Below are positions 1-64,000 of a stretch of 64,000 bases of DNA, in pieces (position 1 is the stretch's first letter; each line of letters begins with the position of its first letter). The notes below the pieces were generated by a model. That model made no database searches and was not told the origin of the DNA. It saw only the letters and a list, made by a program, of their open reading frames with translations. Where the stretch lies: positions 224,001 to 288,000 of the IMG/VR virus record IMGVR_UViG_3300012642_000011, one strand, 5' to 3'. A program made the translations under genes and the position numbers. The stretch is from a virus.

Positions 1-496
1 CGTTGCCAGATACGTAGGCGTTATCAGTCAGCATGGCCTTACCAACCACCAGTACATAACCGGAAACTCGTGCGTTGCCAGTTACTCGCGCGTTGCCGGT
101 CACCCACACGTCGTCAGTCACTCGCGCTTCGTACTCCACTGTCGAGTTGCCTTCTACGCGTGCGTTGCCGGACACTTCTGCGTTCTCGAAAACCTCTGCG
201 TTACCGTACACCCACGCGTTGTCGGTTACTCGCGCGTTATCGTACACCTCCGCTTCACCGGACACTCGCGCGTTGTCGGTTACTCGTGCGTTACCGTAGA
301 CTACTGCGTAGTCGAATACTCGTGCATCATCGGCTACCCAAGCGTTTCCTGAAAGGTTACCCAGATGTTCCACATATCCGCCGAGATCACCGGCCTTCAC
401 GTCATGAGTAGGCAGGTCTCGTGTGGCTCGGATACGGTGGAGCGTGCGACCTTCATAGTGAATTGTTTCATCTGTTAATTCGAAGTGAGCGCTCAT
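1..496 (-). CDS. hexapeptide-repeat (LbH-like) paralog, N-terminal part only (3' end lies beyond window start); N-term MSAHFELTDETIHYEGRTLHRIRATRDLP... then xVxGNAxV repeats
   Basis: ATG at 494-496 after RBS GGAGAGAAAAC; N-terminal domain nearly identical to the six paralogs at 40.7-46.1 kb; 18-bp tandem DNA repeats. Confidence 0.6.
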   Translation of the reverse strand, partial: MSAHFELTDETIHYEGRTLHRIRATRDLPTHDVKAGDLGGYVEHLGNLSGNAWVADDARVFDYAVVYGNARVTDNARVSGEAEVYDNARVTDNAWVYGNAEVFENAEVSGNARVEGNSTVEYEARVTDDVWVTGNARVTGNARVSGYVLVVGKAMLTDNAYVSGN

Positions 497-723
497 GTTT
501 TCTCTCCTTAAGTAAGGTTAACTCTGGTTTGTCATTCTCATTGGTGATCGTATATTACCACAAGAATACGACATAAACAAGACGTGTATAAAACTTATGG
601 TGCGTATTTGCGCTTGTTATCGTTGTGGACTGTCGTTGTCGATAGGGACACAATCCAGTAATCCGTGAAAGAAGAATGCCCGCTATCCTCCCATGTGAAG
701 GTCAAGCGGGCATCCGTAGTTCG

Positions 724-975
724 TCAGGGCTGAAGAAGTTCATTCATGTAGTCGTGAGCATCCTTGGCGTTGTCGAACGTGGCGAGGGTCTCGCACGTCT
801 GATCGTCCCAGATGCTCACGGTAGCGTTCTTATGCGCGAGGTAGAACAGGTTAGAACTCACGTAAATGTTTGCTTCAGTCTGGACATCTCCGAACATGAT
901 GGATGCGCGAACCACCTCGGGCTTGCTAAGGGAAGTAGTCTCCATCTTGGTCAGTTCATTCAGGACGGTCTCCAT
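724..975 (-). CDS. hypothetical protein, 83 aa
   Basis: ORF with RBS GGAGAGATCATCATG; followed by conserved-loop terminator at 683-716. Confidence 0.5.
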   Translation of the reverse strand: METVLNELTKMETTSLSKPEVVRASIMFGDVQTEANIYVSSNLFYLAHKNATVSIWDDQTCETLATFDNAKDAHDYMNELLQP

Positions 976-1077
976 GATGATCTCTCCTTGTGAATGGTAG
1001 GTGTTCGCCTAAGTTGCTTTTCTTATTGTTGGAATCAATCTATCACGGGGGACGTGACGCGCGCAACTCTTAGGTTT

Positions 1078-1371
1078 TCAGATCAGCACACGCATCATGT
1101 CTGTGTCATCAATGGGGGCAAGCACACCGGCTCTCATCAAGTCGTGAGCAAACGCTGTACCGTACTTGCTTAGCGTCACCACGTTCTCGTGAGCGTGACG
1201 AGGATCGCGGATACCGATGACTTCACCCTCATCAGCAGTCCACGCGAGAAAGCGAAGCAGCAGGGTGCCATCGGTCTTCCAGACGGCGACAGCCTCATTG
1301 AAGTGGTTTCCGATGAAGGGGATCTTGAAGGGTGCAGTGGTAATGGCGGTGGTCTTGAAGATGCTTGCCAT
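1078..1371 (-). CDS. hypothetical protein, 97 aa
   Basis: ORF with RBS AGGAGAACATCATG. Confidence 0.5.
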   Translation of the reverse strand: MASIFKTTAITTAPFKIPFIGNHFNEAVAVWKTDGTLLLRFLAWTADEGEVIGIRDPRHAHENVVTLSKYGTAFAHDLMRAGVLAPIDDTDMMRVLI

Positions 1372-1615
1372 GATGTTCTCCTATGTTTGTACGGTGAGTA
1401 TCAAGGCAATCGTATCAGGCTATCAGCCTATTGTCTACATCATGTTTCGAGATCATTATGGCTATGTGGGGACACAGTAATAGGCTGCAGGATTGGACTT
1501 TTCCTATACCCGATTGTGTGATTGTTTTCGGATGCTGCGACACAATAGCCCGCCGTTCCATCGTGTGAGGTACTAGGCGGGCCATTGCTTATCTACTGTC
1601 TGCGATCAGCGCGGA

Positions 1616-1825
1616 TCACTCGGAGACGACGTACACGGTTCCGGTGGCAGGCTCGTAGTCTTCGGGGCAATTGTCGCACTGCCACGGGCCTTCCATCTTG
1701 GTGGTGCCGCGAATCTGCTCTTCAGTGTAGAAGTCGATGTGCTTGTTGCAGACCGCGTAGACTTCGTGGCCCTTGTTCGAGAATGCGAACAGGTCAACGA
1801 AAGGTGCGTTCGCGTTCTTCATCAT
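1616..1825 (-). CDS. hypothetical small Cys-containing protein (MMKNANAPF..., 69 aa)
   Basis: Internal start with RBS AAGGAGAGAGC; conserved promoter/leader variant at 1826-1930; upstream in-frame part of ORF 1616..1945 is translated leader. Confidence 0.5.
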   Translation of the reverse strand: MMKNANAPFVDLFAFSNKGHEVYAVCNKHIDFYTEEQIRGTTKMEGPWQCDNCPEDYEPATGTVYVVSE

Positions 1826-1937
1826 GATGCTCTCTCCTTGAGAGTAGTAGGGATCACTCTGTGTTACTCTCCCTGTTGATGACTCAACTCTACCATGGGG
1901 GACGTGACAAGTGCAACTCGTGCAACACGTTTTATTT

Positions 1938-2315
1938 TCAGTCAATGAAACCGTCCTCGATGATCCTTTCGATCATGTTGGCAGCCATGTTCAGAATGAT
2001 GTATGAATTGTCGTTTGCAAGGTCTGCAGCGTTTCGGAGCACTTCTAGTGCTTGCACGCTTTCCATCTCTGTAGGGGGTACTGTGTCCTCTCCTCCTGTA
2101 CCAGCGATGACAGCCCATGTGGAAATGGTCTGCTCTGCGTTCATGGTGTTGATGACCGTATCCGACCTTGAAAGCAACCAGCGGTAACGGATCTGGCTAA
2201 GGATGATGGCGGCGTTAGTAAGGATGGGGTGTTGCCCACGGATGAGGACGAGTTGACCTTGATCGTCTCTGCCCCATTGTGAGATGTTGATGTGTCGCTC
2301 ATGATTAATGCCCAT
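1938..2315 (-). CDS. hypothetical protein (MGINHERHINISQWG..., ~125 aa)
   Basis: Start chosen at Met preceded by GGAGACAATC; sigma70-like TTGCTA-17-TATCAT upstream (2340-2375, minus strand). Confidence 0.4.
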   Translation of the reverse strand: MGINHERHINISQWGRDDQGQLVLIRGQHPILTNAAIILSQIRYRWLLSRSDTVINTMNAEQTISTWAVIAGTGGEDTVPPTEMESVQALEVLRNAADLANDNSYIILNMAANMIERIIEDGFID

Positions 2316-2420
2316 GATTGTCTCCATGTCGATGATTGTTTTATCGAATGATAGCATATGGTTCTTTTGGTAGCAAGGTGGGGGCATGGGGACACGGAAT
2401 TATCACTAGGAAAGAACAAC

Positions 2421-2458: not shown

Positions 2459-2471
2459 GTTGCGGTTGGGG

Positions 2472-2885: not shown

Positions 2886-3200
2886 TACTCTCCTAATAGA
2901 TGTTTAAAGATGTGAACGTGGTTGATTCATTCGAGGTGATGGGCGGGTGTTTGTTCACGACATGTTATCTCCTTGAAAGCATTGGTCTTATGTTGTTCTC
3001 TTGATCTGATGCTCTCAATGTACAATAGGAACTCTTCACAGTCAAGTCAAGTCGAAGAAATTGTCGTGACGTGTGTAGGTTTTACGAAGACAAGTGTACG
3101 CTTCACCTTTAGCGGGAGGTTAAGGGACACAATTTAAACATCCCGTTATGAAGACAACGGCCCGCTGTCCTCCCGTGTGGGATTCTAGCGTGCCGCTGGT

Positions 3201-3566: not shown

Positions 3567-3779
3567 GATGTTCTCCTTGTGGAGTGTGGGGCTGATTACT
3601 GATGTAAGCATACCATGTTGACAGGGTGTTGTCTATAGATGGTTTTAATCTGGTCAACCTTTTATTTGGGGACACAGGATTGATCTCTTGCCCCGACGTT
3701 TAGGCTGAAGTCACATATCTGTGATTGTTATGTCTCAGTTATGTGACTTCAGCGTGCAACGTAGTCCAGTTATGTGACT

Positions 3780-4608: not shown

Positions 4609-4801
4609 GAATCGCTGCAAGGCCACGGTAGTCATTCGAGACTACCGTGGCCTTGTTGTATCTGCATGTACTTTGGTACTTCAACAGGGGACACAGAAAA
4701 CAATAGCCAATGGAGCCACAGTCATCATGACTCCATTGGCTGCTTTTGCGGTCAGATCTTCAACCTCTCTATGATCTACCCTCCTGTCTTGTGTAGGGTG
4801 A

Positions 4802-7645: not shown

Positions 7646-7650
7646 TCTCA

Positions 7651-7688: not shown

Positions 7689-7863
7689 TGGCTCTCAATC
7701 AGGGGACACAATAAGTGACTTCTTCCAACTCGTAACCTTGAACTCTCCTCGCGCTTTCATCTTCTGTAGAAGTCATGTGTCCTTGGACAGCACGCAACCC
7801 CGACTCTACCATGTGTGAAACAAGGTCGGATCGGGGTTGCGTCGTCTATGCGCAGATGAGGCA

Positions 7864-8154: not shown

Positions 8155-8462
8155 GACCCTTCTCATTCCTCCTTGTGTAGTGTGGCGGTTGCAGGATCTT
8201 CCTTGTCCTGTTGCTGATGTGAGTATAACATGCAGTATGCTTCTTGTACAGTGTCGATTCTAAGACTGATCTCTTCACAAGTTCTTGATCGCTTGCGGTG
8301 AAGCAGCAACAGTAGGGGCGCGAGATGGAAGCACTGGGGGACACAGATTGTATTGAATCCTGCATAGTTCTTTGTGTCGCTCACGGCCGTCATAGGACGG
8401 AAGAGCGACAAGAATATCTCCCTGCAAGAGGGGGTGGGGATTATGCCCCACCCCTCACCTTG

Positions 8463-9530: not shown

Positions 9531-9683
9531 GGTCAGATCGGGGGACACAGAATCACGCACTACCCACCCCATCGACTCGGTGACAGATTGAAAGAATGAG
9601 CGGTTTGTCATCATTGCCATCATGGTGTAATCTGTTCTCAGAACAACCGATCAGGGCGACTCGCCCCTCACAGAAACGAGAAC

Positions 9684-10175: not shown

Positions 10176-10238
10176 ACGCACGGATCGACCCGCTCTACTC
10201 CTCATAGGGTGGGCGGGTCGATCTTTTGCGCAGGAGCA

Positions 10239-10251
10239 GGGGACACAGAAT
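10239..10251 (+). repeat. instance of dispersed 13-mer GGGGACACAGAAT (other examples: 9542-9554, 11298-11310, 13358-13370, 19350-19362, 50913-50925, 56781-56793)
   Basis: Exact 13-mer seen at each listed site, always between a terminator and the next promoter. Confidence 0.8.
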
Positions 10252-10844: not shown

Positions 10845-11056
10845 TCCAGTGAGGACGCTCCGCGTGCTACCCGTGACACCACAGGAAGCACGCGGAGCGG
10901 TCGCCGTGAAGGGCTGGCAGGGCGGGAGGCTTCACGGTCTCCCGCTTTTTGTGTCAAGGGCAAGGGGACACAGTTCTCACTGAATCATGCATGCCCTCGT
11001 GTGGCATCCACGGCGGTGATGGTGTAGGATGGGGGAGTCCCACACGGCAAGGAGCG

Positions 11057-11260: not shown

Positions 11261-11453
11261 GGTGTGTAGGCGGGCGTGAGGGTGAGGGTGGGCAACAGGG
11301 GACACAGAATGTGTTCTTATGCTCGCGCTGTCGCCCTGACGACTGAAACAATGGGAGAGCGCCCTGTTTGACTTCAGTGTGAATGTGTGGCAGACTGTTC
11401 TTCAGTAGGTCGGGGGAGCCGCCCCTGACCATCTACTCTCAAGGGGAGAAAAC

Positions 11454-11906: not shown

Positions 11907-12108
11907 CCGACACTACCAACGCCCCGCCTGACTCCCACGAGGATGATGGCGGGGCGTTGTGTTGTGGGGGGAATCGGGAACAGGGGACACAATATGTGTC
12001 ATCAACGACAACGGGTTACCACGGCGAACAGGGTGACGCTGTGTGGACATGCGAACGCCCCGCCCGTGCTCCTTGGTCCAAGGGTTCAGGCGGGGCTGTC
12101 GTGCTGGT

Positions 12109-12573: not shown

Positions 12574-12686
12574 GTCCCCTATGGAATAATTTTTACGGCA
12601 TGCTCGGTAGGGTAACGCTTAGGGGACACAATGCGCATGGGGCAACCAAGCGCAATGGCGACTGTGAATTCAGGATTGAACCGTAA

Positions 12687-13226: not shown

Positions 13227-13436
13227 GGTCTCTCTCCTTGAGAGTCGTGAGGCTTGCCGGTTGCTTACCCCTTGATGAATCCCACTATACACGACAGTAC
13301 GCGCAGCCGTCAAGCGTATTATCGCCCCTCCAGCAGAGCAATCACTGTATGCTGTGAGGGGACACAGAATTCGAGTTGACGGTTTGAAAAAACCGCCCCA
13401 GTGCTCATAATCAGCACTGGGGCGGCGGGGCGCTTG

Positions 13437-13775: not shown

Positions 13776-13999
13776 AATACTCTCCTTGTGGAGTCGTGGT
13801 CTTGGGCTGCTCCCTTGACCTGATGAATCAATAGTACCACGGGGGACGCTCCGCCGTCAAATCTATCAATCGTGGTAGTGCTATAACATCTCGGATTGGT
13901 CGAGGCGCTGGATGACTTAGGTATCAGGGGACACAAGAATTGCGACAACGAGGATAAGAACACGCCCCCATCCTCGCGGTAAGGATGGGGGTGTGTGAG

Positions 14000-14230: not shown

Positions 14231-14450
14231 GATTGTCTCTCCTTGAGAGTCGTGGTCTTAGGTTCTTCCCTCGACCTGATGAAAGAAATCTATCACAGAC
14301 ATGGAGCAGGCGTCAAGTCGAGCGGTCAAGATTATTTCATCATCTTCCAGAGGGGACACGGAATATGGTATATGCCACACTTCTTGCATCCATCAGTGTG
14401 AACAGGGCGATGCATGATCACACTGATGGATGCTCACACCTTGCACACTG

Positions 14451-14846: not shown

Positions 14847-15219
14847 GGTCTCTCCTTCGAGTTGTGCCCAGCCGTGTGCTGTGCTCTCGTGAGCAATGCT
14901 ACCAGATAATTAACCCGTGGTCAAAGTTGTCTGTCGAGAAGATCAAGGGGACACAATAATGTCCTTGATACCCACACCCGCAGATAACACCACAAGACTG
15001 GGGAACAGCAAGCGGGAACCTTTGCGCAACACGTAGATGGCACACCATATGTGGAGTACAGGTGAGGTGTGCAGGTACTCAAGGGGACACAGTAATTGTA
15101 CTCGGACTGCAGCGTAATCCGCAGAATCACGCTGCTGAACACGCATTGGCGACTTGACCACATCGGTGCTCTGCGGCTACAGTGGAGATAGATCAACACC
15201 CATTTCCAAGGAGAACACC

Positions 15220-15798: not shown

Positions 15799-16128
15799 GT
15801 ATCGGGGCGACGTGGTGTATAACTGCACCACGTCGCCCCGTAGGTGCCCCTGATGCCTATGTGAGCACATGGATGGCACTAAGGTCTTCAGGCGTCCTCA
15901 TAGGGGTACAGAACGCCGTGTGTGTCGTCGTCTCTGATTCGTGAGGAGATAATTAAGCAGAGCGGTCGAAGGGGTAGTGGTAACGATAGGGGACACGGAA
16001 TCGGATGTAGTAGGCACGAGATCCTTGAACGACTGTACTGCCAATCAAGGATCTCGTGCCTACTCAACCCACTGTACTCATTAGCAGTTGTAGGGAGACT
16101 GCTAAGGGGGACGCTCGTGCGTGGCGAT

Positions 16129-16509: not shown

Positions 16510-17030
16510 GGTTCCTTTGTTTGATCTGTTCGTCTGTCGTCTACCAGTGTAGCAGAACAAGGGGAACAGGGGTAATCCAAGTGGCACGATAGCAATGGGG
16601 ACACAATGCAAACACTCTGATGGGCAGCACGACAGGTAGTACAGCAATTGTCTCCTTGTCCATCATGTCGATCTTGCTGACGGCTTGACCTTCACGGCGG
16701 TCAGAACATGCTCTGGGGTCGCCTATGCGCCCCGTGGAGGCGTTGGGAGCTTGTGGGGGCACTCTTGGACGTTGAAACACTGTGGGTGGCTCTGAAGGGC
16801 GGCAGGGGCTTCGAGGTGTCTGCATGGGCTTGAGGGTGCCGTTTTTTGGTGGCTTGAGGGACGTGACATGGACATCGTTAGCACTCCTCGAAAAAAAATA
16901 TTGGCTCCCGACTTGTGCTCGGATTAAATGTGTGCCATGATGGTTACAACGCAAACGAATAGAGCAACGAAGGACAGGGAGCGCCAGAGAGTTCCCGAAT
17001 CTTCCTGATCACCTACAAAGGAGGTGAAAA

Positions 17031-17234: not shown

Positions 17235-17504
17235 TCTCCACGGTCATCAGGCAGGGCAAGTGACCCCACCTGCCGCACGGATACCCCGTGCGGGACGTTC
17301 TACTTCAGGGGCTGGGCACAATGTCCAGCCCCTTTTTCATGCGCTCGATAGGGGACACAGTTTTCACGACCACCTTAGCCCTTTCATGTGTTGACTTCAC
17401 CGAATATGGCAAGGACAGCAAGCCACATCGGAAGGACAAGAAGACGACCATTCTGGGTTGTACAAAGGACACGCTCGATACTGTCACCACGGAGGAGATG
17501 GACG

Positions 17505-18552: not shown

Positions 18553-18693
18553 GAAAAGTCCTTTGATTGGTGGATGGTGTTGCCTCAATGCTACAGCAAG
18601 GAAGCGCTTTCGTCAAGCAATCCAAAGACAGATTTGTTTCGTTCCCTGTGTCCCCTCATGCACACGGAGAGCGGCGGATCGCCCCGCCACTGC

Positions 18694-19248: not shown

Positions 19249-19453
19249 GGTGCCAGCCTACAGGACAAGAGGAAATAATGCAAGCCTGATGCTCTGCTTG
19301 TTTTTGCCTCATATTGTGTCCCCTTGGGCGTGCCATCATGTGCGCGCGTGGGGACACAGAATTCGAGAGTAGTCATGAACCACGATGAGCACACACGCGC
19401 CGCCCCGCCGTTCATCCTCTGGGGACTACTTGGCGGGGCGAGCGGCTTGCAGG

Positions 19454-19852: not shown

Positions 19853-20084
19853 GGTATCTCCTTGAAGAGTGGTGGGTCTTGCCGGTTGCTTGCCCCTTGA
19901 TGACTCCTACTCTACCAGCAAGACGCTCCATTATCCAACCCCAGAGCAATATTGTGTTCTTCAACAGTAAGCGCACACTCGGATGGACGAGTCGCTCTGG
20001 GGACACAAATTAATGCTTAAGTATCCTATACGCACGCATGCCCGCCACCCCTCTGTCGTAGAGTTCTGGCGGGCATGCTGCATG

Positions 20085-20453: not shown

Positions 20454-20695
20454 GATGTTCTCCTTGAGAGTGTTGGTCTCGGGCTGTTCCCTTGACCTGA
20501 TGAAATGATCTTACCACACGGGACGCTCCACGGTCAATCTTTCCATGAAACTTCATGCATGAATGGTTCCGCGTTCGGACCTATTCATGCATGGCCCCTC
20601 CCCTGTGGGGACACAATATGGGTGACCACTGTGCGCACGATAAAGCCCCGCCGTCCCTCCGTGATGGAGTTCAGGCGGGGCGTCGGGGGTCAGGA

Positions 20696-20947: not shown

Positions 20948-21147
20948 GATGTTCTCCTTGAAAGTGTTGGTCTCGGGTGGCTCCCTTGACCTGATGGAAT
21001 GACCTTACCACACAGGACGCTTCTTGTGCAACCCACATTGGAGGAGAAGGGAGGGGACACAAGATGTTGCCACCAGAGCACTACGAACATGACAAAGCCC
21101 CGCCGTCCCTCCGTGATGGAGTTCAGGCGGGGCATTATCGGAGTGAG

Positions 21148-21522: not shown

Positions 21523-22151
21523 GGTATCTCTCCTTGAGAGTTTCGGTCTTGGGCGGTTCCTTCGACCTGATGAGACCATCCTACATGATAGGACGCTCCA
21601 CTGTCCAGACCGCACCCAGTCACAGTTGTCGTGGCTGCAGTTACCACTAAAGACATTTTGCTTCCTCAAGGTGTCTTTGAAGTCAATCTGTCCATGAAAG
21701 AGAACGTGATGAATACACTTTGACATTTTGACTCGAAGACTGATTGGACAAATTGATCTGGGGGTGATCCGTAGTGACCCTCCGAACGTCACCACGGCCT
21801 CGTGCATGCTGTGCGGCGCTGTAAGCCTATTTGACGCACTGACATTGCCTCAGCGTCCAAGAGTGCCCTCAGATGTCACCAGAGGCTCACAGAGGCGCTC
21901 ATAGGCTCCTGACGCACTCGGAGAGGGCCACGTGCTCTCGTGCTCTCGTAAAGTCTCCTGCACCCTCACAGGGACCATAATGACCATGTGATGCCATGTG
22001 AGCACGATGGGGCAGGCGCGCAACTGCTGCATCTATCCCTGACGGTGAGAGCGGATAGTGGGCGAGTTGCCATAGGGGACACAAAAGATGATACAAAGAG
22101 ATGACCCCGCTTTGCGATTCAGGTCAGAATCGCAAAGCAGGGTCTAACAGG

Positions 22152-22490: not shown

Positions 22491-22892
22491 GGTTTCTCCT
22501 CAGAAAATATGGCAGGGTCTTCCTGATCCAGTAATTCGATTCTACTACATCCTCTCTTGCGAGTCAACAACTCCGATGAGACGGTACTGGTGGTTGCCCT
22601 TGCCGTGCCGCTGACACCATTCGGGGACACAGTTAGCACATTGCAGCAAGAGCCACCAAGTAACCCGTAAGGGTGAAAGGTGGCGTAGTGGTCAGTGCTG
22701 ATCAGGTCGATTCCCTTGATGGTGCGCATGATGAGTGCCCTCTTCCTGTTGAGTGATCTTTGTCCATGCAGTCTATCAGGGATGGGGCGAGAGTCAAGTG
22801 GATGTAAAGGTTCCCGAGGGGACACAAGATGATCAGAAAAACACAAGACCCAGCAATTCAACTCACTGGGTCTTGTGTTTGTGCGTGTTCCC

Positions 22893-23615: not shown

Positions 23616-24011
23616 GATGTTCTCCTATGGGGAGTGCGGGTTTATTGCTGATGAGTAGCGGGGCGGGGAGAACTACCACTCCCCGCCCCGCCGTGTATCC
23701 GTTCAGGCGCTTGTGGGCTTTCCACAGTGACCATCAACCCATTGGGGAGGATGATCCACCGCATTTGAGCTTCTTCGAGAGGCTTGAGTGGCGCTCTGTC
23801 CTGTTGTCTTGATCGTAGCACCCTTGTGCTCATGGTGTCAATGCGAGTTCTCCACGGACAAGGACGCTCCACTGGTCTTGGTCTGTCACGCGCTGTTCTG
23901 GGTCTCGCTACTGTCCATCTCGTTCTTCATAGAAGGGACACAATCCCTGCACAGCGAGAGAGGGCGGGGCTTCCACCGTCTCCGGCTTCCGCCCCGCCCT
24001 CTTGGGTGAGG

Positions 24012-24212: not shown

Positions 24213-24431
24213 GCTGCTCTCCTTGAGAGTGGTGGTCTTGGGATGTTCCCTTGACCTGATGAGACCAGACTACACGATAGGACGCTCCACTGTCCAGTCG
24301 AAAACCGAGAATCTTTCTCCAGAAGGCAGACGGAGCGATCAGGGGACACACATCGAGGCGCGTGTGCGAAGCAGAAACGCCCCGCCATCGTCCTCTCGGG
24401 TGAGGAGTCAGGCGGGGCGGTCTCGGAGTGC

Positions 24432-24599: not shown

Positions 24600-24842
24600 G
24601 ATGCTCTCCTTGCTCGGAGTTTGATTGACATGACCATGATAGAACGCGTTTGATGTTCATGTCAAGAGGTTTTCCAGAATTCCAGAGAGCGATCTTCGTG
24701 ACGGACTCATCGAGTGAGCGTGGTGGTTGCTGTCTGGGTGAGCAGGGCAAGGGGACACAGTATTCGTGAGCGCGGTAACGCGATGACACCGCCACGCCCC
24801 GCCTGTACTCTACCACAGAGGGACGGCGGGGCGCTGTGTTAT

Positions 24843-25229: not shown

Positions 25230-25403
25230 GTATCTCTCCTTGAGAGTCGTGGTCTTGGGGGAATCCCTTGACCTGATAAGGCCATCGTAGCGCACGTAGT
25301 CCGCTTTGTCGAATCTGCAGACGGGGTAGCCCCAGAGGCCAAAGGGGACACGGAATCAAGGACAACAGAACAGGCGGGGAGTACTATCACTCCCCGCCTA
25401 CTC

Positions 25404-28039: not shown

Positions 28040-28226
28040 GATGTTCTCCTAATGAATAATTGATGAGTCTTGTTCAAGTGCAATGCTATACCGTCATATG
28101 TGTTACGTCAAGCCTCATCCGCGAGCGATCAAGGAGTTCTCACATGGGGACACAACTTGAGCGCAAGCGCACCCCTTGAACAGCAAAAAGTGGGCAGCGC
28201 CTCCACTACCCACCCTTGCTCATGAG

Positions 28227-28520: not shown

Positions 28521-28712
28521 GTTCTCTCCTTAGAGTGTCTGCGCGGTGTTGCGCTCTGCAATGAACTCTACCCTACGCGGTGGATCATTGTCAAAGCGCA
28601 ACGCAGTGAATGCATATGGGGACACAATACTCGCGGCAGCGCCATGAGCGCAGCAGCACAACGCCCCGCCGTTCATCCTCGGGGGACTACTGGGCGGGGC
28701 GCTGGTGGGGTC

Positions 28713-29042: not shown

Positions 29043-29287
29043 GATGGTCTCCTTGGGGAGTTGTGGGGTTCGGCTCTTCCTCATCCCTTGATGAATCCCA
29101 CTTTACCAGACAGACGCTCCGCTGTCCAGCCGGAATGAGTAGGGCGAACAACTTTTTCCTCCCTATGCGATGAGGGGGTGGGTGTAGCGTGAGGGGACAC
29201 AGATTGTATGATCACCACATCGGCAACACACACACAACGCCCCGCCGTTCATCCTCTGGGGGACTACTGGGCGGAGCGTGCGGTGGA

Positions 29288-29539: not shown

Positions 29540-29704
29540 GGTGCCAACCTATAGGATGAGAGGGAATAATGTAAGTCTGATTGCCTGCATATTTTTGTCT
29601 TATATTGTGTCCCCTTGAAGCGAGTCATCATGTGCGCGCGTGCCAGTTGAATGCAAGAGGGCGGGTTTAGCCATGGTGCGCTCAACCCGCCCTCACGCAG
29701 TAGG

Positions 29705-34756: not shown

Positions 34757-34943
34757 GGTGGTGACTCCCTCGTTATTATCTGTGCCTCCATCATAAGCAT
34801 GATGAAACCGTTGCGTCAAGGAAAAACTAAGGAAGTTAAAAGTCCTTAGTGCCACAGTCTCATGCTTGCGAGAGGTCAAATAAGAACGTTGCCGGTGGCT
34901 CTGGGGACACAATTACACTCCCGTAGATCATCGATGTGGATTA

Positions 34944-35497: not shown

Positions 35498-35637
35498 TAG
35501 CAGAGAATCTTGTGGCACACAGTTGTCACAGGATTCTCTCATGACGGACAGGGGACACAAAAACAGAACAACACCAACCAAACACTACGGCCCGCCGTTC
35601 CCTCGTGTGAGGTACTGGGCGGGCCGTAGTGTGGAGG

Positions 35638-36522: not shown

Positions 36523-36656
36523 CTTGGATTCCTTGTCTGAATATGAGTTTGTCAACAATCTATCATGGATGAACGTATAAGACAACCTTGTTTTCAGGCG
36601 AGGTCTCCTTAGGGACACAGGATACTCGTAGATGATCCTTTCCGAAGTCTTGGGGA

Positions 36657-36866: not shown

Positions 36867-37192
36867 GATGCTCTCCTTTTCGTGTTGTCCTTGCCACTAT
36901 GGTAACAGGTTTAAAGGTATTACGGTAGGGGGTACATTCTTTGATTACTGGTAGGTTGCATGAGGGTGAGTCGCCTCTGGATTGTCTGACCTCGACAGAG
37001 GCTCTGTGTGCCCTTCTGACGCCTTCTAACACCCCCATCCCACTGTGAGGCATCAACGGTTGGAACGTTCTTCTACGAGCCGCACAGCCTCGTAGAGCAT
37101 ATATTCTCACTCGTGCGTGCTCACATGAGTGGCTTTGGGTGTCTGATGTTCTCGTGGACCCTTGGGGACACAAAATGGTGTGAGACGAAAAA

Positions 37193-37475: not shown

Positions 37476-37703
37476 GATCTCTCCTTGAGAGTTGCGGTCT
37501 CGGGCTGTTCCCTCGACCTGATGAATCAATAGTACCACAGGGGACGCTCCATCGTCTACTCCGCAGAGAATTTATTTTCAGCACTCTTGGAGGCAGATGG
37601 ACAAGGGGACACAATAATCGTATCCCTCTTGACTAAGAGGACAGGATACAGTTCGGCCCACCATCCTCCCGTGTGTGGGATTCTGGTGGGCCGAACTGTC
37701 TCA

Positions 37704-38707: not shown

Positions 38708-38878
38708 TCATAGGGTGAGGGTGATGGGAGGAATCCTGTCACCCTCACTTTTTGAGTGAGTATGGGGACACAATATACATGACATGGTTGTGATGTATGT
38801 CTGATGTGTTGTCGTATGTGTAACACTCAACCCCCTGCCGTTCTGTACTGATGCTGGCAGGGGGTTGAGTGGATCATC

Positions 38879-39711: not shown

Positions 39712-40182
39712 GATGCTCTCCTTGTGGAGTAGTGGTCTTGGGCTGTTCCCTCGACCTGATGGGATCATCCTATCACAGTGGATTGTCCAGTTCAAGTCAG
39801 GGGTCAGGGGTGGTTAGGGGACACAGGAATCATGTGATGCCCATGCAGCAAGATGCAGTGCTACCTCATGCTGATTGGCTCGTGTTCCATGTGAGCGCAT
39901 AGGTGGATGGTGCTACCGTAGAGTTTCCCTGTGTGGCATGGAGAGGAGGTCAAAAGGGTAGTACCATGACTTGCTTGCCGGTGATTGAAAAAGTCTGATG
40001 TATAGTCATTATTTTTACGATATTTATAGGGACACGTATTGTCTTCAGCGCCAATAAAAGAAACCTGATTGATTTGTACTTATCACTCAATCAGGTTTCT
40101 TTTGTTTTGTCTGTAGTTAAAAGAACAATGTGGCCCAGCCACCTGTACTATCAGGATTCACTGGGCCGCATTGCTATGTGGT

Positions 40183-40488: not shown

Positions 40489-40705
40489 GGTCTCTCCTAG
40501 GAGTAGTGGTTGGTGTTGAGATTGGCCCCTGTGGCCTCGCTGTTTGCTCTCAACCTGATGAATCAATAGTAGCACGGGGGACGCTCCATGTGCAACATGT
40601 GCAGCACGAATAATCTCGGGATAGTCGCAGCCCTCTATTGGATCACGTAAACTCGTGATAGTATGCTCACACATACCTATGGGGACACATAACTTGCTGT
40701 AAATA

Positions 40706-41488: not shown

Positions 41489-41502
41489 GATTTCTCCTTG
41501 TA

Positions 41503-42258: not shown

Positions 42259-42467
42259 GGCGTCTCCTTGAAAATGGTAGGGATTATCTTATCAACGATC
42301 CTATGCTGCCCTTACCCTATCATATGGGACGCTCTATGCGCAACCTATTTCTTGTACTAATTGGGCTATATTGCGACAAGTGATGCCGAAGTTTACACAA
42401 GGGGACACAGTAGCGAAAACAGAGAACGGACAAGGCGACAGTCGATGCCACCTTGTCCGTTCTCTGA

Positions 42468-42779: not shown

Positions 42780-43022
42780 AATCTCTCCTTGAGAGTGGTA
42801 AGGGTCGCTCTGTGTTGCTCTCCCTTGCTGATGAGTCAATAGTAACACGGGGGACGCTCCATGCGCAACCTGACAGCAGAAATAATCTAGGGAGGCTCAC
42901 AACCTCTCGATTGGATCACTTCAATTCGTGATAGTATGCTCACACATACCTATGGGGACACATAACTTGCTGTAAACAGTCAAGTAGCACAGTAGGGATA
43001 CAACTACTGTGCTACTTGGGTT

Positions 43023-44347: not shown

Positions 44348-44573
44348 AGTTTCTCCTTGAAATGGTAGGTGATGACCTTACCCTATCATGGAGACGACCC
44401 ATACGCAACATGTGCAGCATGAATGATCTATGGAGACTCACGGTATCTCAATTGGGTCATTTCAACTCATGAGACTACTAAAGGGACACAAAACGTGGTA
44501 CAAACAAGGCAATCAGCACAGTAGGAATCCCACTACTGTGCTGATTGCCTTTTATTGCTTGGAATCAGGCCGC

Positions 44574-45038: not shown

Positions 45039-45268
45039 AGCGTCTCCTTGAGAGTGGTAGGGTGTTGTCCTATTGACGTTCCCGTGATTCCCTTATCCTA
45101 TCATGGGAGACGCTCCACATGCAACACTAGTGATCTAGGGAGGCTCACGACATCTCAATTGGATCACTTCAACTCGTAAGAATGCTAAAGGGACACAAAG
45201 TATTAAGTAAACAATCAGGTAGCACAGTAGTGGTATTCCTACTGTACTACCTGACTTTTGTTGCTTGA

Positions 45269-46084: not shown

Positions 46085-46337
46085 GATTTCTCCTTATGAA
46101 TGAGGGGCGATTCGTGTTTGCTGCCTTCGTCGCTAACGCAACTCTACCATAGGAAACACTCCACTATCAACTCTGAAACGAAACTTCAAGGTCAATTCTT
46201 ACCATCCTTTGAGTATAGGGGACACAAGTTGCGAGGGTGTTTCCTACAAGTCCTCATGGTCTCCCCATGTTGACAATGAGTTACCCATGTGTTAGATTTA
46301 AGTCATCAACAGGTTCATTGGTACAGGAGAGTGAAAC

Positions 46338-47315: not shown

Positions 47316-47465
47316 GGTTTTCTCCTTTGATGGACATGTTTTCATTACAACATTACAAGACAATGTGTTCATTGTCAACACAGAAAACACAAGGTTTACT
47401 GATAATCAAGGGACACAAGACGTGAAGCGCCCCTGTAGAGACTGTTCTACAGGGAGGCTACACGA

Positions 47466-48402: not shown

Positions 48403-48576
48403 GGTGTTCCCTTTCGTTGGAATGGTTCAGGAAGTCTTACTTGATGGAATCATCGTATCACAGGTTTCTTCTTGTTGCAAACGTAACTGTGTCATTCAGG
48501 CAGCAGCGCCGCTTGGGACACAGTTTGAGTATGTTGTATGCTGCATATAAATGCTGCAGTTTTTAAACGGGGAAAC

Positions 48577-49038: not shown

Positions 49039-49437
49039 GATGCTCTCCTTGGGGAGTGGTAGGGATTGCTCTGTTTTGCTCTCCCTGTTGATGACTCAAC
49101 TCTAACATGTGGGGACGCTCCATGTCAACTGGTTTGAGCAATAATTTTTAGGCAGCCGAAACGCACAGTGTTATCACAGGAAACAGAAAGGGACACAGAA
49201 CTTCTCGCAGTATCAAAAAGTGGACTGATTGCATAGGCAGCATGCAACCAGTCCACTCAAGTGAGGTTCTCTTGTTGGTATCACTCTACAACAGGGGACG
49301 CTCCGTTGTCAACTCGATCTCGGGACAATCTGCAGCCTTTTGGTCAGATAGGCATTAGGGACACAAGATACGAGTGCCACCTAAAAAGGAAGGGGAGAGC
49401 ACAGCGCCTTGTGGTCTCCCCTTCCTGTGGCAGTGTG

Positions 49438-50268: not shown

Positions 50269-50404
50269 TCCTGATGCCGCCCGTGAGGGTGGTGTCATAG
50301 GGGACACAATTCCTGAATTACCATACTGAGATCTGTTCTCAACATGAACAACGTCCCGCTATCGTCTCTTTCGTGAGATTCTAGCGGGACGTTGTTCTTT
50401 TGCT

Positions 50405-50809: not shown

Positions 50810-50995
50810 GTACTCCTTGTCGTGGGGTAGTATTCATTTCCTATCACCATCAGGATACATGATGGAGAGGTGAAAGGCAACCTGCACGAGTTCTTATTTG
50901 TAGAGATGAAGTGGGGACACAGAATTATAACGTGAGGAAAAGCAAACGACCCGCTCTCATCCTCTCGGGAATCAAGCGGGCCGTTTGCTTTTGGA

Positions 50996-51337: not shown

Positions 51338-51580
51338 GATTTTCTCCTTGATGAGAGTATTTCGGGATTGCTCTGTGTTGCTCTCCCTTGCTGATGAATC
51401 AAATGTACCACAGGGGACGCTCCATGTGCAACATGATTTCCGAAGATCGTGGAACTTTTCTACCCGTGAGAACAAAAGGCAGCATGAAGACCACACACAG
51501 ACAACCCACAGGGGACACAAGATGAGAGCAACAAGAAAGGGTGTGGACGTTTGTATGCGGCCACACCCCTCTTTGATCAA

Positions 51581-52508: not shown

Positions 52509-52674
52509 TCAGAGTGTGAGGTGAGATCGTAGTGGTCTGTGGCGAGGGGACACAATTATGCTAACAAAATAGTGGCGTTTTGGTAGATCGGGGACGTGAC
52601 ATGAAGATCATCCGGTGAGATGAACAGGGGGAGGGAGATGGGATCACTCCCATCTCCCTCCCCAGATCACGTTG

Positions 52675-53832: not shown

Positions 53833-54029
53833 AGTTTCCTCATGGTTTAATTGTAGAAATGAATAGTTCTTGCCATGATCTTAGCACAATGCTTGCTACG
53901 AGAACAAATGCAAGCGCGTCTTTGTGACAGATTGTTTCGTACTATCCGCTTGGGGACACAAAATAATGTTGCGAGGGAATGAAAAACCCCTGCTGATCTC
54001 CACTCGGGAACCCAGCAGGGGGAGGAGGG

Positions 54030-54186: not shown

Positions 54187-54445
54187 ATGTTCTCCTTGTG
54201 GAGTAGTAGGGATTGCTCTGTGTTGCTCTCCCTGTTGATGACTCAACTCTACCATGGGGGACGCTCCACGTGCAAGTCTCGGCAAGATTATTTTTGAGGA
54301 TGTGTAAGCCGGCATGATGTGTGCAGTTCCGCAGGGGACACAAGAGAGGGCGAAATAATCTTCTGCCCTCATGTTGACTTTCGCCTCTCCTTGCCCTAGG
54401 CTTAGAGAAGAAGCAAGGAAACATTCGACTCACGAAAGAGAGACC

Positions 54446-54742: not shown

Positions 54743-54916
54743 GCATAGACGCTGAAGACCTGACACTAAAACGTCAGGTCTTCAGCGTTTCTGTGTCTCC
54801 CATCATGACGGGACGAGGGGACACAGTATTCGAGAAGAACGCACTTGCTGTTGGGCTTGCTTATGCGCATGATGCCCTGTAGGCTGGGAGCATCCCCGAC
54901 AGCAAGGAATGGAATC

Positions 54917-55120: not shown

Positions 55121-55296
55121 AGGCAAGAAGGGATCAGCGATAGTAGGTAATCCTACTATCGCTGTTTTAATCTCTAGGGGAGGGGACACAACATGAGAGC
55201 AGCACGTATTCGTGTACCAAGTTGCTTTCAGGATGTCGCTGTGATAGTCTGATTCCAGTTGTTCACCAGTACACATCTCACTAAGGAGAGAGAACC

Positions 55297-55770: not shown

Positions 55771-55984
55771 TCTTCTGACGTAAGGGAGACGGGAGCAATC
55801 CTGTCTCCCTTACTCTTTGTCGCCATTGGGGACACAAAAATCCTCACACTACCTCTCATTGCTCTTGCCCAACGGGGACGCTCTACCACACAACGATATG
55901 CTGACTGGTGTGCAGTATCTGTTCGCTTTGACATCTGATGGAGAAGGTGTAGAGTAGAAGAAAACGACGATGAGAGGATGGATC

Positions 55985-56230: not shown

Positions 56231-56414
56231 TCGGTCGCCCTTCGGGGCTTCGCCGCAAGGGACACAGAAAATAATCTGGTGCGGAAGCAAAAAAATTCCA
56301 CCAAGGGCTTGCATCATGCCGTCAGTTATGCCTATGATGGTTTCAGCAAGCAGCCCACATCCACGAACTCACCATTGATTTGGTGGAGACCATCAGCACT
56401 GAAAGGGACTTCCC

Positions 56415-56660: not shown

Positions 56661-56926
56661 TCCCGACATGCGCCCACCGATGATGACTCGGTGGGCGCAT
56701 GTTATCGACCAGCGTTCTCTGTAGGCAAAGACCACGATCTATTCCGAGATCGTGAACGCATGTTGAGGCAAGAGGACATAGGGGACACAGAATGCCATAC
56801 AGAGCGGGGAGTGAGTAGCCTGAAAGTTTTCCTTGCACGGCTTGACATGATCACCGCCATGTGTAATGATTGATTCATCAGGTCGAGGGAACAGCCTAAG
56901 ACCATCACTCTCAAGGAGAGACTATC

Positions 56927-57361: not shown

Positions 57362-57535
57362 TCCGAAGGCAGTTTGTTGACTTGGTGTGATTCAAGTCAA
57401 CAAACTGTCTTTTTGCGCATCGAGAGGGGACACAGTTTTTGTGTGCCTTTCATTCTTTTCCTCACGTTGACATCACGCTTGCTCTCCTGTAGATTTAGTT
57501 CCAACAGGGCAGGACAAATTCCACTCAAGGAGAAC

Positions 57536-57931: not shown

Positions 57932-58284
57932 TCACGCATAACAGAGACCCTGTAGGGAGAGTTTCCTACAGGGTCTCTTGTGTGCGTAGTAGAGGGGACA
58001 CAAGATCGCCAGTGCCGCGTATGTTCCTGCGATTCAAGCAATGTAGACTGTTTAGACATTTTGTAACCTTAGAGATCATTTGAGTGCAATATGTCTTCAC
58101 CTAGAGGTGATTCTGTTGACACTTTGAAATTCTGACTCGAAGAGCGATTGGACAAATTGCAACCTGCTGCATCCTGTAAGCGAACAACATCTTGCATGCA
58201 TCACACCCATGCTTGCATTCAATGCACGGGTAGTGTACGGTAGGAACTACCAAGCAAGATAACTTCCGAGAAGGAGAGCATGAG

Positions 58285-58578: not shown

Positions 58579-58685
58579 TGCCACCTAGCAACGCCTGACT
58601 GATTCCCCTTGAGGATGATGTCAGGCGTTGCTGTAGGTCACTTAGGGGACACAATATTTCTCTAAATGCAAAGAGGTTGCAGAAA

Positions 58686-58722: not shown

Positions 58723-58733
58723 CACGTGTGTCA

Positions 58734-61588: not shown

Positions 61589-61685
61589 GGAAGGCATTGT
61601 GGTCCCTGTGGGGACACAGATCAGCATGATCGGAACATGATAAAGTCCGACTGAAATTGATCAGTCGGACTTTATGCTTTCCCTG

Positions 61686-61913: not shown

Positions 61914-62118
61914 GTGATGCTCTCCTACGGAGTAAGTGGGAATCGGCTCTTCCTCTTCCCTGCTTGATACTCATAATCTATCACAGGGGACGCTCCACTG
62001 TCAACCATGTTTTGCACGTTGCTTCCGTGAGTAAACGATAGGCATAGGGACACAAGATGAGCGATCAATGAATAGGGGCGGCAGAGATGTGTTCTCTGCC
62101 GCCCCTATCGCGTGTTGG

Positions 62119-62550: not shown

Positions 62551-62642
62551 GATCTCTCCTCATGAGTGAATGGTCTCGGATGGCTTCCTTAACCTCTGTG
62601 ATTACTCTACACGAAGGGACGTTTCACTGTCAACACGAGCGA

Positions 62643-62918
62643 TCACACCTCAAAACGCATGGAATAGAGTGGGTTCGCGCCGATCTTGTTCTCAGTCACG
62701 GAATAGCGAAGTTGTGTCATCGTGTTTGGAATGTATTCAGATCCGTTCATCCCCACCTCGTGATCCTTGATCCCCAGATGCAAGAACTCCTTGCTCACCT
62801 GATCCATGGCATCTTGTGCCGTCTTGTGGGCAGAGACGAACATATCGCCGCTCACGTCAATTGAATCCCGTGTCACAACAAGTCGCATTATGGTCAAAAT
62901 GTACACAGTATCGATCAT
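62643..62918 (-). CDS. hypothetical protein (MIDTVYILTIMRLVV..., 91 aa)
   Basis: RBS AAGGAGAAGAAC-ATG. Confidence 0.45.
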   Translation of the reverse strand: MIDTVYILTIMRLVVTRDSIDVSGDMFVSAHKTAQDAMDQVSKEFLHLGIKDHEVGMNGSEYIPNTMTQLRYSVTENKIGANPLYSMRFEV

Positions 62919-63086
62919 GTTCTTCTCCTTGTTTGTTTTGATTATTGTCAATGACACACTATATTTTCAGAACCCTTTTGTCAACACAGTCCCCACATCG
63001 AAATAAGGGGACACAGATCATGTGATGGCTGTAGTGACGATAGTACAACTAGTAGCACGAACAGGATCACAGAAGGAGGGAAGCAC

Positions 63087-63281
63087 ATGAACCTCAGAAG
63101 AGACAGAACCATAGCAGGAATCATTGCCTTGCTTATGCTCGTTGCTGTAGGCATCTATGCCCTCTACTCGGACATCCCTCTCGTGAGCGTAGGTGTTCTC
63201 ATCCTCGTCATCCTAGGGATCAGGGAGGTCTGGAAAGTACGCAAGGAACCAGACGCTCACGACACAGCAAACGACGACTGA
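63087..63281 (+). CDS. small membrane protein, 64 aa
   Basis: RBS GAAGGAGGGAAGCAC-ATG; two hydrophobic helices. Confidence 0.5.
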   Translation: MNLRRDRTIAGIIALLMLVAVGIYALYSDIPLVSVGVLILVILGIREVWKVRKEPDAHDTANDD

Positions 63282-63421
63282 TTCATAAGGGACGCTCCAT
63301 CGTGGTCTCCGTCTGGAAAATGTTTTGACCCAGAGTTGACACGTGTACAGAACGTGTGCAATGATTGATTCATCAGGTCAAGGGAACAGCCCAAGACCAT
63401 AACTCTCAAGGAGAGAGCATC

Positions 63422-63622
63422 ATGAAGGAAACTTTCAACCAGCCCGCCGCCCAGTGGACCTGCGATTGCGGCACCCTGGTGGAGCGGTGGCGCGGGCAGT
63501 CGGATGTCCAGTGCTACAACTGCGGCCAGTGGTACAACGCCTTCGGTCAGCGTCTGGTGAGCAACTGGGCCAGCGCCGCCCGCATGGCCGAGTACGGCGA
63601 GGTGTGGGACGAGGACTACTGA
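63422..63622 (+). CDS. small Cys-rich zinc-ribbon-like protein, paralog of 24012..24212
   Basis: Plus-strand canonical leader GATTCATCAGGTCAAGGGAACAGCCCAAGACCATAACTCTCAAGGAGAGAGCATC-ATG. Confidence 0.55.
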   Translation: MKETFNQPAAQWTCDCGTLVERWRGQSDVQCYNCGQWYNAFGQRLVSNWASAARMAEYGEVWDEDY

Positions 63623-63776
63623 GCATAGCCTCAGTAGCAGCCCGCCTAGTACCTCACACGAGGGAACGGCGGGCCGCTCCATATTGATTACTTGCTGGAT
63701 TTTGCATTCATGGGGTTATCATGGTAAGATAGGTAGACCATGAAAATACTCTGCAAATCAGCAAGGAGAATGGCGC

Positions 63777-64000
63777 ATGAGTGAAATCTTTGGAAGTTGG
63801 AACATCTGGGTGATCCTCGCTGTGACTATCGTCAGTTTCGCTCTGTTCGCTAAGGCGATACGTATGCGAGGCGATCATGACAGCAAGGCGGGAGGCGTAG
63901 CAGTTAATTCCGGTCTCTGCATCCTCGGCGTAGGCGTGATCGTGATGTCCATGATTGGTATTGCCTACCTGTCCGCGTCTTACACCAGCCATGTGGCAAA
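63777..64000 (+). CDS. membrane protein, 5' part (continues beyond window)
   Basis: Promoter TTGCAT-17-TAAGAT at ~63700-63730; RBS AAGGAGAATGGCGC-ATG. Confidence 0.5.
   Translation, partial: MSEIFGSWNIWVILAVTIVSFALFAKAIRMRGDHDSKAGGVAVNSGLCILGVGVIVMSMIGIAYLSASYTSHVA

Follow-up and report, generated by a model that had tools for sequence, protein, structure and literature searches.

The 64,000-nucleotide stretch analysed here (positions 224,001 to 288,000 of IMG/VR record IMGVR_UViG_3300012642_000011, henceforth referred to as 'the window') consists largely of short gene cassettes, and between these cassettes recurs a 13-mer word (henceforth 'the motif') that lies almost always on the same strand, whichever way the neighbouring genes point. 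The motif is a real, highly non-random and conserved feature, and its pattern fits no described kind of site; a literature search, which covered both the sequence itself and intergenic repeats of fixed orientation, brought up no earlier description. The exact 13-mer GGGGACACAGAAT occurred seven times in the window, always on the plus strand, where 0.01 copies were expected, and its 9-mer core GGGGACACA occurred 61 times, compared with 0.60 copies expected from dinucleotide-preserving shuffles. The core was present 58 times on the plus strand and three times on the minus strand (binomial p = 3e-14), and the 8-mer GGGACACA 72 and three times, respectively. When up to two mismatches were allowed, GGGGACACARWAT returned 76 matches (4.6 expected), and the same search brought out a second allele, GGGGACACGGAAT (A9 to G), in four copies that are all on the plus strand and all keep a perfect GAAT tail, as well as one reversed copy of a near form, GGGGACACGAAAT. 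With the variants included, the grand total is about 76 copies on the plus strand and four on the minus strand, and the hand count of roughly 70 and 4 given in a preliminary description, which had been made from the sequence alone, is thereby borne out, the pattern being even stronger than first described.

Over the 61 core copies the consensus read W-GGGGACACA-R-W-A-T (written out as a representative sequence, AGGGGACACAGAAT), that is, 14 positions of which nine are invariant and a further four to five are biased, with an information content of approximately 21 bits. A position count over the same 61 copies detected no conservation outside these 14 positions, and the motif is therefore not a fragment of a longer conserved terminator or promoter. 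The spacing between copies had a median of 651 nt.

Position and orientation of the motif at cassette boundaries

Genes were called with a codon model trained on the calls accompanying the matching public contig (see below), and two low-scoring open reading frames (ORFs) that overlapped motif copies were left out of the gene set. This gave about 108 genes in the window, mostly of 50-250 amino acids (aa), with 64% of the window being coding. By these calls every motif copy was intergenic and none lay in coding sequence, and with about 80 copies the motif occurs, as had been proposed, about once per cassette. It was present at 42 of the 56 junctions between two minus-strand genes, at 11 of the 12 between two plus-strand genes, at 11-12 of 15 convergent junctions and at six of 16 divergent ones, and the GGGGACACG allele occupied four further junctions. 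The orientation was identical in all four junction classes and is thus independent of gene strand. Two early claims were therefore upheld, namely that the orientation is set by the replicon and not by the gene, and that the motif consequently flips relative to transcription in the plus-strand blocks.

The motif follows the terminators and not the promoters. For the 51 copies that had a hairpin in their own spacer (as called by a strict hairpin finder), the gap between motif and hairpin base had a median of 14 nt, and 71% of these copies lay within 25 nt of the hairpin, compared with 26% when copies were placed at random in their own spacers. The hairpin stood to the left of the motif at junctions of two plus-strand genes and to its right at junctions of two minus-strand genes; since its side switches with gene strand, the motif always lies, in terms of transcription, beyond the terminator and its T-tract. 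Many of the hairpins here have weak T-tracts. At convergent junctions the motif sat between both terminators (for example, at 4686 and 38763), while short junctions that bear a promoter and no hairpin carried no motif (5078-5180, 23115-23201, 35941-36060 and 37914-38000). The motif had been placed at the outset between the terminator of one cassette and the promoter of the next: the position beyond the terminator stands, but the link to the promoter does not, as promoter-only junctions are free of the motif. The distance from the motif to the nearest -35 box was likewise variable (30-90 nt), and the motif was present at promoterless convergent junctions.

The minus-strand genes have a highly conserved promoter and 5' leader that read, on the minus strand, TTGACA-..GGAGCGTCCCC..TGg-TACTAT-..CATCAGGTCGAGGGAAC. 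About 39 of these near-identical promoters were seen (for example, at 8844, 12557, 13844, 20521, 24280, 33525, 37542 and 49113), with a GC-rich, near-palindromic spacer GGAGCGTCC between the -35 and -10 boxes and the leader CATCAGGTCGAGGGAAC conserved. The spacer element GGACGCTC occurred 39 times on the plus strand and GGAGCGTC once, from which it follows that the element is confined to minus-strand promoters. In the example entered in Table 1, the spacer places GGGGAC/GGACGCTCC on the plus strand, as the motif does. Overall, GGGGAC was found 96 times on the plus strand and 14 times on the minus strand of the window, with 58 of the plus-strand occurrences in the motif and, in promoter spacers, 17 as GGGGACGCT and seven as GGGGACGTG. 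The preliminary description had pointed out that GTCCCC is common to the spacer and the reverse complement of the motif; this likeness is real, but it is limited to GGGGAC, all other positions of the motif and of GGAGCGTCCCC being different, and the spacer element is absent from plus-strand promoters. In the roughly 39 minus-strand promoters, GGGGAC on the same strand as the motif and between -35 and -10 occupies a position like that of an operator. The plus-strand genes have TTGAC-N17-TAnnnT promoters of their own, which are placed between motif and gene; two of them (upstream of 56927 and 63422) have the -10 box and leader of the minus-strand promoters, and none has the GGAGCGTCC spacer.

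These promoters bear on the idea that the motif is itself a promoter element, firing rightward and used by a special polymerase or sigma factor with CARWAT as a -10-like box. The tail CARWAT does resemble nAnnAT, and two genes without the usual promoter have a reversed copy 67 nt upstream. However, in about 60 cases such a promoter would fire antisense into a terminator, the plus-strand genes are already served by the promoters described above, the distance from the motif to start codons varies from 76 to 291 nt, and in distant relatives of the element (see below) the tail reads GGGGACGACGAAA, which is not -10-like. We consider this explanation most improbable and rejected it on account of the separate plus-strand promoters and of the tail, which is not conserved in relatives. 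The earlier view that the motif is no sigma-70-type promoter element agrees with the variable distance to the -35 box and with the placement of the plus-strand promoters.

The two reversed copies just mentioned (beginning at 19311 and 29602) have homologous flanks over about 80 nt, and the 67 nt that separate each of them from the start of its minus-strand gene (18694-19248 and 29288-29539, respectively) match the placement of the GGAGCGTCC spacer in other genes. The first of them is also the left arm of an inverted pair, described initially as perfect at 19310-19362. The pair exists (19311-19362), but its arms, GGGGACACAAT on the left and GGGGACACAGAAT on the right, agree over GGGGACACA and the outer AT and are not perfect across 13 nt. 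The copies 31276(-) and 31368(+) form a third inverted pair.

The adjoining origin-like region and relatives of the element

A metagenomic contig of 332,269 bp (ENA ERZ27289831 k141_11150) contains the window at 100% identity, with a window position w equal to 155744 minus the contig position, and the element is 100% identical over stretches of 13-21 kb in more than 20 other ENA and JGI assemblies. No DNA match to the element was found among INPHARED phages, scans of IMG/VR for the motif and the leader returned chance singletons only, PLSDB held no match to the relaxase-like protein P0001 (see below), the metagenome collection searched did not contain the element, and the sole match in genome_contigs was a 3.6-kb contig of a Tissierella metagenome-assembled genome. 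Of the 332-kb replicon, about 100 kb underlie the replicon-level results that follow. Beyond the right edge of the window further copies, again on this strand, were found up to at least w = 70.5 kb. On the left, copies become sparse (w = 644, -1396, -3599 and -4496) before the array ends: no genuine-looking copy at up to one mismatch was detected on either strand from w = -4.5 to -19.5 kb. The array covers about 80 kb, and its nearest copies lie about 1.3 kb to the right of a cluster of DnaA boxes, with none across the 14 kb beyond.

The DnaA boxes are part of an origin-like non-coding region of about 3 kb (L097 15900-18840; w about -4500 to -7470). In window orientation, this region contains a tract of about 1.3-1.8 kb that is almost purely A and C, an AT-rich stretch, three DnaA boxes at intervals of 21-22 nt (L097 17194, 17216 and 17237, together spanning 17194-17245, or w about -5850; TTATCCACA twice and TTGTCCACA once), the direct repeat GGGTGTGCGCAYA in five copies, and a G-rich tract in which the repeats are GGGRRNTCATG-like. 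Both GC and AT skew flip sign sharply here, in the sense expected of an origin. At third codon positions, read on the plus strand, G exceeded C by 0.139 in minus-strand genes and C exceeded G by 0.015 in plus-strand genes; the strand component of the skew was about +0.06, and the spacers gave +0.04 with the motif masked. This component lends weak support to a replication fork that moves rightward from the origin, in which case the lagging strand would be templated by the plus strand, and replication would meet most cassettes head-on. Neither the window nor the origin region had a match to a known RNA family in Rfam.

Directly to the left of the origin region lies the gene for P0001 (680 aa). 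A winged helix and an invariant PD...(E)VE...K motif characterise the family of this protein; of nine members, five match Pfam Replic_Relax (best E = 2e-6), and NCBIfam MobC gave a weak match. By these sequence features P0001 is MOBC-relaxase-like and resembles restriction-endonuclease-like relaxases such as TraX of pAD1, which has an N-terminal winged helix-turn-helix domain and binds five direct repeats at its own origin of transfer (oriT) (PMC12857230). The AlphaFold model of P0001 was poor (pLDDT 44) and was not used. Beside P0001 are genes for a PilT-like ATPase, TadZ/ParA-like and CpaB-like proteins, a TcpF/VirB4-like ATPase, TcpE-like, RusA-like and TadB/C-like proteins, and a TadA/VirB11-like ATPase of 903 aa with an apparent intein (Hom_end match; L103 19907-22043, w about -17.4 to -19.5 kb). 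With an origin that has DnaA boxes and direct repeats, and with MOBC-relaxase-like and type IV secretion system (T4SS)/Tad-like genes adjoining the array, the assumption that the element is a phage is doubtful, and we regard the replicon as a plasmid-like or phage-plasmid-like element in which the cassette array flanks the origin. The array may be the leading region of a conjugative element.

With its G-rich sequence, its place on the G-rich strand and its direction away from the origin, and in being strongly strand-skewed and, as it seems, co-oriented with replication, the motif is like the polar signals that are read by DNA translocases and nucleases, namely Chi (AddAB/RecBCD) and KOPS/SRS (FtsK/SpoIIIE). 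The genes nearby include those for a TcpF/FtsK-like ATPase fragment and further ATPases of translocase type. However, Chi and KOPS are words of 5-8 nt that occur genome-wide, mostly within genes, and are mirrored on both replichores, whereas the motif is a 9-13-nt word that is strictly intergenic, adjacent to terminators and one-sided, without mirrored copies for 14 kb to the left of the origin. A signal of this kind is distinctly unlikely. The motif could also, though this too is unlikely, mark sites at which a nickase encoded by the element cuts one strand, as in T5, phiKMV and tf. The sites in those phages are likewise sequence-specific, asymmetric and on one strand, the motif lies outside transcription units, where a nick in the template strand would spare RNA polymerase, and a HNH/GmrSD_C protein is encoded just to the right of the window. 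Known nicked genomes have 4 to about 15 sites, roughly tenfold fewer than the at least 80 sites in 80 kb found here; furthermore, the replicon is probably more plasmid-like than virion-packaged, the searches above found it neither in INPHARED nor in IMG/VR, and nicking would explain neither the coupling to terminators nor the one-sided start at the origin.

The only variant of the element that was found, L106 (Logan SRR25400133), has 92-94% DNA identity and contains the core 12 times, on the same strand throughout and never reversed, with five of these copies in the 3.9 kb past the right end of the part of the element that was read. Two cassette-sized indels distinguish it from the present element (L100): in the first a promoterless ORF is removed, with a breakpoint 18 nt from the motif, and the second is flanked by a short direct repeat and lies far from any motif. 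These breakpoints bear on the view, put forward in the preliminary description, that the motif is a conserved junction used for cassette recombination, or more generally a site of cassette insertion or exchange like the attC site of integrons. The resemblance lies in roughly 100 one-gene cassettes, each with a single repeat in the same orientation irrespective of that of the ORF and with a variable hairpin next to it at the 3' end of the gene. However, both indels break outside the motif and the cassettes have promoters of their own; the R''/R' inverted cores of attC have no counterpart in a motif that is a single word, with no inverse core across the hairpins and GTCCCC only 14 times on the plus strand; and the hairpins are ordinary terminators that flip with the genes, which the motif does not. 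No IntI-type integrase was present among the Pfam matches of the 108 window proteins or in the flanks (about 100 kb). Exchange at attC-like sites is therefore very unlikely, and the recombination junction was rejected on the evidence of the two breakpoints.

Two distant relatives were found as ENA contigs of 347 kb (ERZ26867811 NODE_2) and 337 kb (ERZ27262748 k119_28504), with a GC content of 41%, a homologue of P0001 that is about 35% identical, and a gene pair and skew switch as in the present element. On the equivalent side of the origin these have 5-7 copies of YGTCGTCCCC, which in window orientation is GGGGACGAC; the copies are on one strand, oriented as in the present element and spaced 0.5-1.8 kb apart. 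The GGGGAC core, the polarity and the origin-side position have thus been conserved while the rest of the word changed. In these relatives (L104 and L105), the approximately 9 kb beside the origin-flanking gene (positions 1-9000) are gene-poor and show extreme strand asymmetry, being A/C-rich on one strand, with low-complexity ORFs only and no higher-order repeats.

What the motif could do

We tentatively read the motif, with a confidence that falls well short of even, as an asymmetric protein site that marks the cassette boundary as a transcription insulator and is oriented by one-way replication or transfer from the adjacent origin. A stand-alone word of about 21 bits, placed at terminators, points to a factor that reads the whole word at the ends of transcription units, and a second allele that is always accompanied by a perfect GAAT tail is what would be expected of a site read as a whole. 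One orientation over at least 75 kb, in an array that starts on one side of an origin, argues for a process that runs in one direction from that origin. The 13-mer W-GGGGACACA-RWAT would accordingly be recognised by a sequence-specific DNA-binding factor that the element itself encodes. With one site 10-20 bp past nearly every terminator, the bound factor would face a polymerase that reaches the terminator or reads through it, and would act as a roadblock or boundary by which each promoter-gene-terminator cassette is insulated from its neighbour. The uniform orientation would result from a second machine, either the replisome or conjugative strand transfer, that crosses the array one way, such that the complex of factor and DNA must be passed or read in one polarity.

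Several observations weigh against this reading. The sequence common to motif and promoter spacer is restricted to GGGGAC, and the coverage is about 100 kb of a 332-kb replicon. A simple roadblock needs no fixed orientation, and the polarity is thus an added assumption. The comparison with the close relative L106, in which the core was conserved at 53 of 54 aligned positions (other intergenic positions, 90.9%), amounts to a trend only (p = 0.086). Finally, the GGGGACGAC copies of the distant relatives lie in gene-poor DNA with no evident cassettes or terminators, at a spacing of 0.8-1.2 kb, a setting that better fits a function unrelated to transcription.

The main alternative, which we consider doubtful, is that the motif is a strand-specific signal for priming on the single strand during rightward replication or transfer from the origin or oriT, with a start of complementary synthesis roughly every kb. 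The cassettes of the leading region would in this way soon become double-stranded, the promoter of each before the rest, and could be expressed. In its fuller and equally doubtful form, the motif would be a priming signal, or another signal read in single-stranded DNA (ssDNA), in a leading region of at least 80 kb of a 332-kb conjugative element, whose approximately 100 phage-like counter-defence or takeover genes would fire by order of entry; alternatively, as a variant, it would be an orientation-dependent boundary element, at every terminator, that is permissive to the replisome one way and a barrier to RNA polymerase. Leftward synthesis would meet the promoter first in minus-strand cassettes, where the motif is set 40-90 nt behind it, and the median spacing of 651 nt in the window and the 0.8-1.2 kb kept in the gene-poor DNA of the relatives are of the order that priming would call for. 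The strand is uniform whatever the orientation of the genes, the array begins at the origin and on one side only, and the MOBC-relaxase-like gene adjoining it, with T4SS/Tad-like genes opposite, recalls the layout of tra genes, oriT and leading region. The five direct repeats are present as in the DNA bound by TraX of pAD1 (PMC12857230), and about 80% of the genes are templated by the plus strand, as in known leading regions (PMC11541004). The genes of such regions lie on one strand, and their ssDNA signals are structured elements of 100-300 nt (PMC11541004; bioRxiv 10.64898/2026.01.09.698686).

On the other hand, priming does not predict the tight, mirror-symmetric coupling to terminators, and at junctions of two plus-strand genes synthesis would meet the hairpin directly. 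The 14 kb to the left of the origin are without copies, although they would need priming too, and no primase was found in about 100 kb. Known primases read 3 nt, and the known signals of this type, ssi and Frpo, are structured elements and not linear 13-mers. Those signals, the ssDNA promoters of the leading regions of F, R100 and ColIb, are like the motif in being strand-specific, in lying beside an oriT-like locus with most genes on one template strand, and in the proposed early conversion and expression of the DNA that enters first. They are, however, imperfect hairpins that mimic -35 and -10 boxes and number only a few per plasmid, whereas the motif is a linear word in about 80 copies, with no conserved structure, a hairpin on one side or the other and no Rfam match; a linear-sequence counterpart of ssi/Frpo has not been previously described. 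Accessibility in ssDNA gave no signal: in predicted ssDNA folds the motif had an unpaired probability of 0.49, compared with 0.51 for the control.

A close parallel is found in the stoperators of cluster A mycobacteriophages, repressor-binding sites of 13-14 bp that are like the motif in length, asymmetry, intergenic position and a number of copies in the tens, in part in their relation to an early-promoter element (here GGGGAC) and, plausibly, in a role in blocking transcription between genes. Stoperators flip with transcription, however, whereas the motif stays on one strand in both gene directions, which agrees with the initial judgement that they are not a full match. The motif further differs from them in its place 10-20 nt past terminator hairpins and in the one-sided array from a replication or transfer origin; only six of its 13 positions are common to the promoter element. 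The PeSL cassettes of T4-type phages also form densely packed arrays in a plastic region, in which every small gene has a strong conserved promoter and a stem-loop to itself, but they have no added genome-oriented word, whereas here the extra 13-mer is the notable feature. The motif therefore lacks what defines stoperators, ssi/Frpo, Chi/KOPS and attC, though it works like parts of each.

Gene content of the array and its significance

The proteome of the window consists of phage-like accessory material, with six YdcK-type beta-solenoid paralogues, three Lsr2-like proteins, VG64/RDF-like, FemAB (52675-53832) and GNAT proteins, Tpt1/KptA, a cREC domain and two TnpB proteins; an RNA ligase and the GmrSD_C/HNH protein are encoded just to the right of it. 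Together with the flank, at least six YdcK-type beta-solenoid/bactofilin-like paralogues were counted (40763-46084 and L097 10876-11628; PHROG E = 1e-99). In two of the cassettes (near 40680 and 42953) the DNA that surrounds the motif is near-identical over a spacer of about 130 nt, which indicates a recent cassette duplication. An RNA-repair-like set is scattered in the array, comprising the Tpt1/KptA 2'-phosphotransferase, the cREC cyclic-phosphate-processing receiver domain and the RNA ligase (loci of this set and of the GmrSD_C/HNH gene: 34979-35497 (+) and 46338-46709 (+); L100 3322-4326 and 1135-1977). The RNA-repair, GmrSD_C/HNH, Lsr2-like and FemAB genes look like counter-defence or takeover content. 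The RNA-ligase homologues P0023, P0052 and P0104 occur in unrelated genomes, and the contig of P0002 ends 677 nt from the gene.

Both TnpB ORFs (IS605-type; 5786-7645 and 25837-27048) are on the plus strand and in segments of lower GC. After the first come a 129-aa ORF and a long hairpin whose end falls just before a motif copy (Table 1); in those public contigs in which this TnpB gene is present, it occurs once. As to the idea that the motif is an IS605 target, one TnpB element ends beside the motif and the other does not.

Table 1. Motif copies in the window and one of the about 39 conserved minus-strand promoters. 'Core 8/9' denotes 8 of 9 core positions.
Feature	Position	Strand	Remark
motif copy	643..656	+	core 8/9
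motif copy	1467..1480	+	
variant allele	2388..2400	+	GGGGACACGGAAT
motif copy	3122..3135	+	core 8/9
motif copy	3667..3680	+	
motif copy	4686..4699	+	between two convergent terminators
motif copy	7701..7714	+	9 nt past hairpin at right edge of TnpB element
motif copy	8336..8349	+	
motif copy	9540..9553	+	plus-strand gene block, 11 nt past terminator
motif copy	10238..10251	+	plus-strand gene block
motif copy	10963..10976	+	plus-strand gene block
motif copy	11297..11310	+	plus-strand gene block
motif copy	11982..11995	+	convergent junction
motif copy	12621..12634	+	
motif copy	13357..13370	+	23 nt ahead of reverse-strand terminator
motif copy	13926..13939	+	
variant allele	14352..14364	+	GGGGACACGGAAT
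motif copy	14946..14959	+	
motif copy	15082..15095	+	
variant allele	15989..16001	+	GGGGACACGGAAT
motif copy	16596..16609	+	
motif copy	17350..17363	+	
reversed copy	18643..18656	-	within hairpin
reversed copy	19311..19324	-	left arm of inverted pair, 67 nt upstream of gene 18694-19248(-)
motif copy	19349..19362	+	right arm of inverted pair
motif copy	19998..20011	+	
motif copy	20606..20619	+	
motif copy	21052..21065	+	
motif copy	22074..22087	+	
motif copy	22622..22635	+	
motif copy	22817..22830	+	
motif copy	23933..23946	+	core 8/9
promoter and 5'UTR	24245..24302	-	spacer GGAGCGTCC(CC)
motif copy	24341..24354	+	
motif copy	24750..24763	+	
variant allele	25344..25356	+	GGGGACACGGAAT
motif copy	28145..28158	+	
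motif copy	28617..28630	+	
motif copy	29192..29205	+	
reversed copy	29602..29615	-	flanks homologous to 19311 copy, 67 nt upstream of gene 29288-29539(-)
reversed variant	31276..31288	-	GGGGACACGAAAT
motif copy	31368..31381	+	
motif copy	32156..32169	+	
motif copy	32597..32610	+	
motif copy	33065..33078	+	core 8/9
motif copy	33573..33586	+	core 8/9
motif copy	34153..34166	+	
motif copy	34902..34915	+	
motif copy	35550..35563	+	
motif copy	36610..36623	+	core 8/9
motif copy	37163..37176	+	
motif copy	37604..37617	+	
motif copy	38763..38776	+	between two convergent terminators
motif copy	39816..39829	+	
motif copy	40680..40693	+	flank duplicated with 42953
motif copy	42400..42413	+	
motif copy	42953..42966	+	flank duplicated with 40680
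motif copy	44481..44494	+	core 8/9
motif copy	45188..45201	+	core 8/9
motif copy	46217..46230	+	
motif copy	47408..47421	+	core 8/9
motif copy	48513..48526	+	core 8/9
motif copy	49188..49201	+	core 8/9
motif copy	49356..49369	+	core 8/9
motif copy	50299..50312	+	
motif copy	50912..50925	+	
motif copy	51510..51523	+	
motif copy	52545..52558	+	
motif copy	53951..53964	+	
motif copy	54333..54346	+	
motif copy	54816..54829	+	plus-strand gene block, 21 nt past terminator
motif copy	55181..55194	+	plus-strand gene block, 12 nt past terminator
motif copy	55827..55840	+	plus-strand gene block, 13 nt past terminator
motif copy	56257..56270	+	core 8/9, plus-strand gene block
motif copy	56780..56793	+	plus-strand gene block
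motif copy	57425..57438	+	plus-strand gene block, 12 nt past terminator
motif copy	57993..58006	+	plus-strand gene block, 14 nt past terminator
motif copy	58644..58657	+	
motif copy	61609..61622	+	
motif copy	62045..62058	+	core 8/9
motif copy	63006..63019	+	

If the motif is indeed a polar boundary site or a priming signal, then it shows how about 100 independently transcribed accessory genes of a very large mobile element are organised with respect to the direction of its own replication or transfer. No current model covers such an arrangement: the orientation of stoperators is set by transcription, Chi and KOPS occur without regard to genes, and the ssi/Frpo signals are structured and few. 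The motif also provides a handle at the sequence level, namely a GGGGAC-type word on one strand, placed by terminators and starting at an origin beside a MOBC-like relaxase gene, with which related uncultivated megaplasmids or phage-plasmid-like elements could be found and oriented, and with which the limits could be drawn of their early or leading regions, where candidate counter-defence genes are plentiful.

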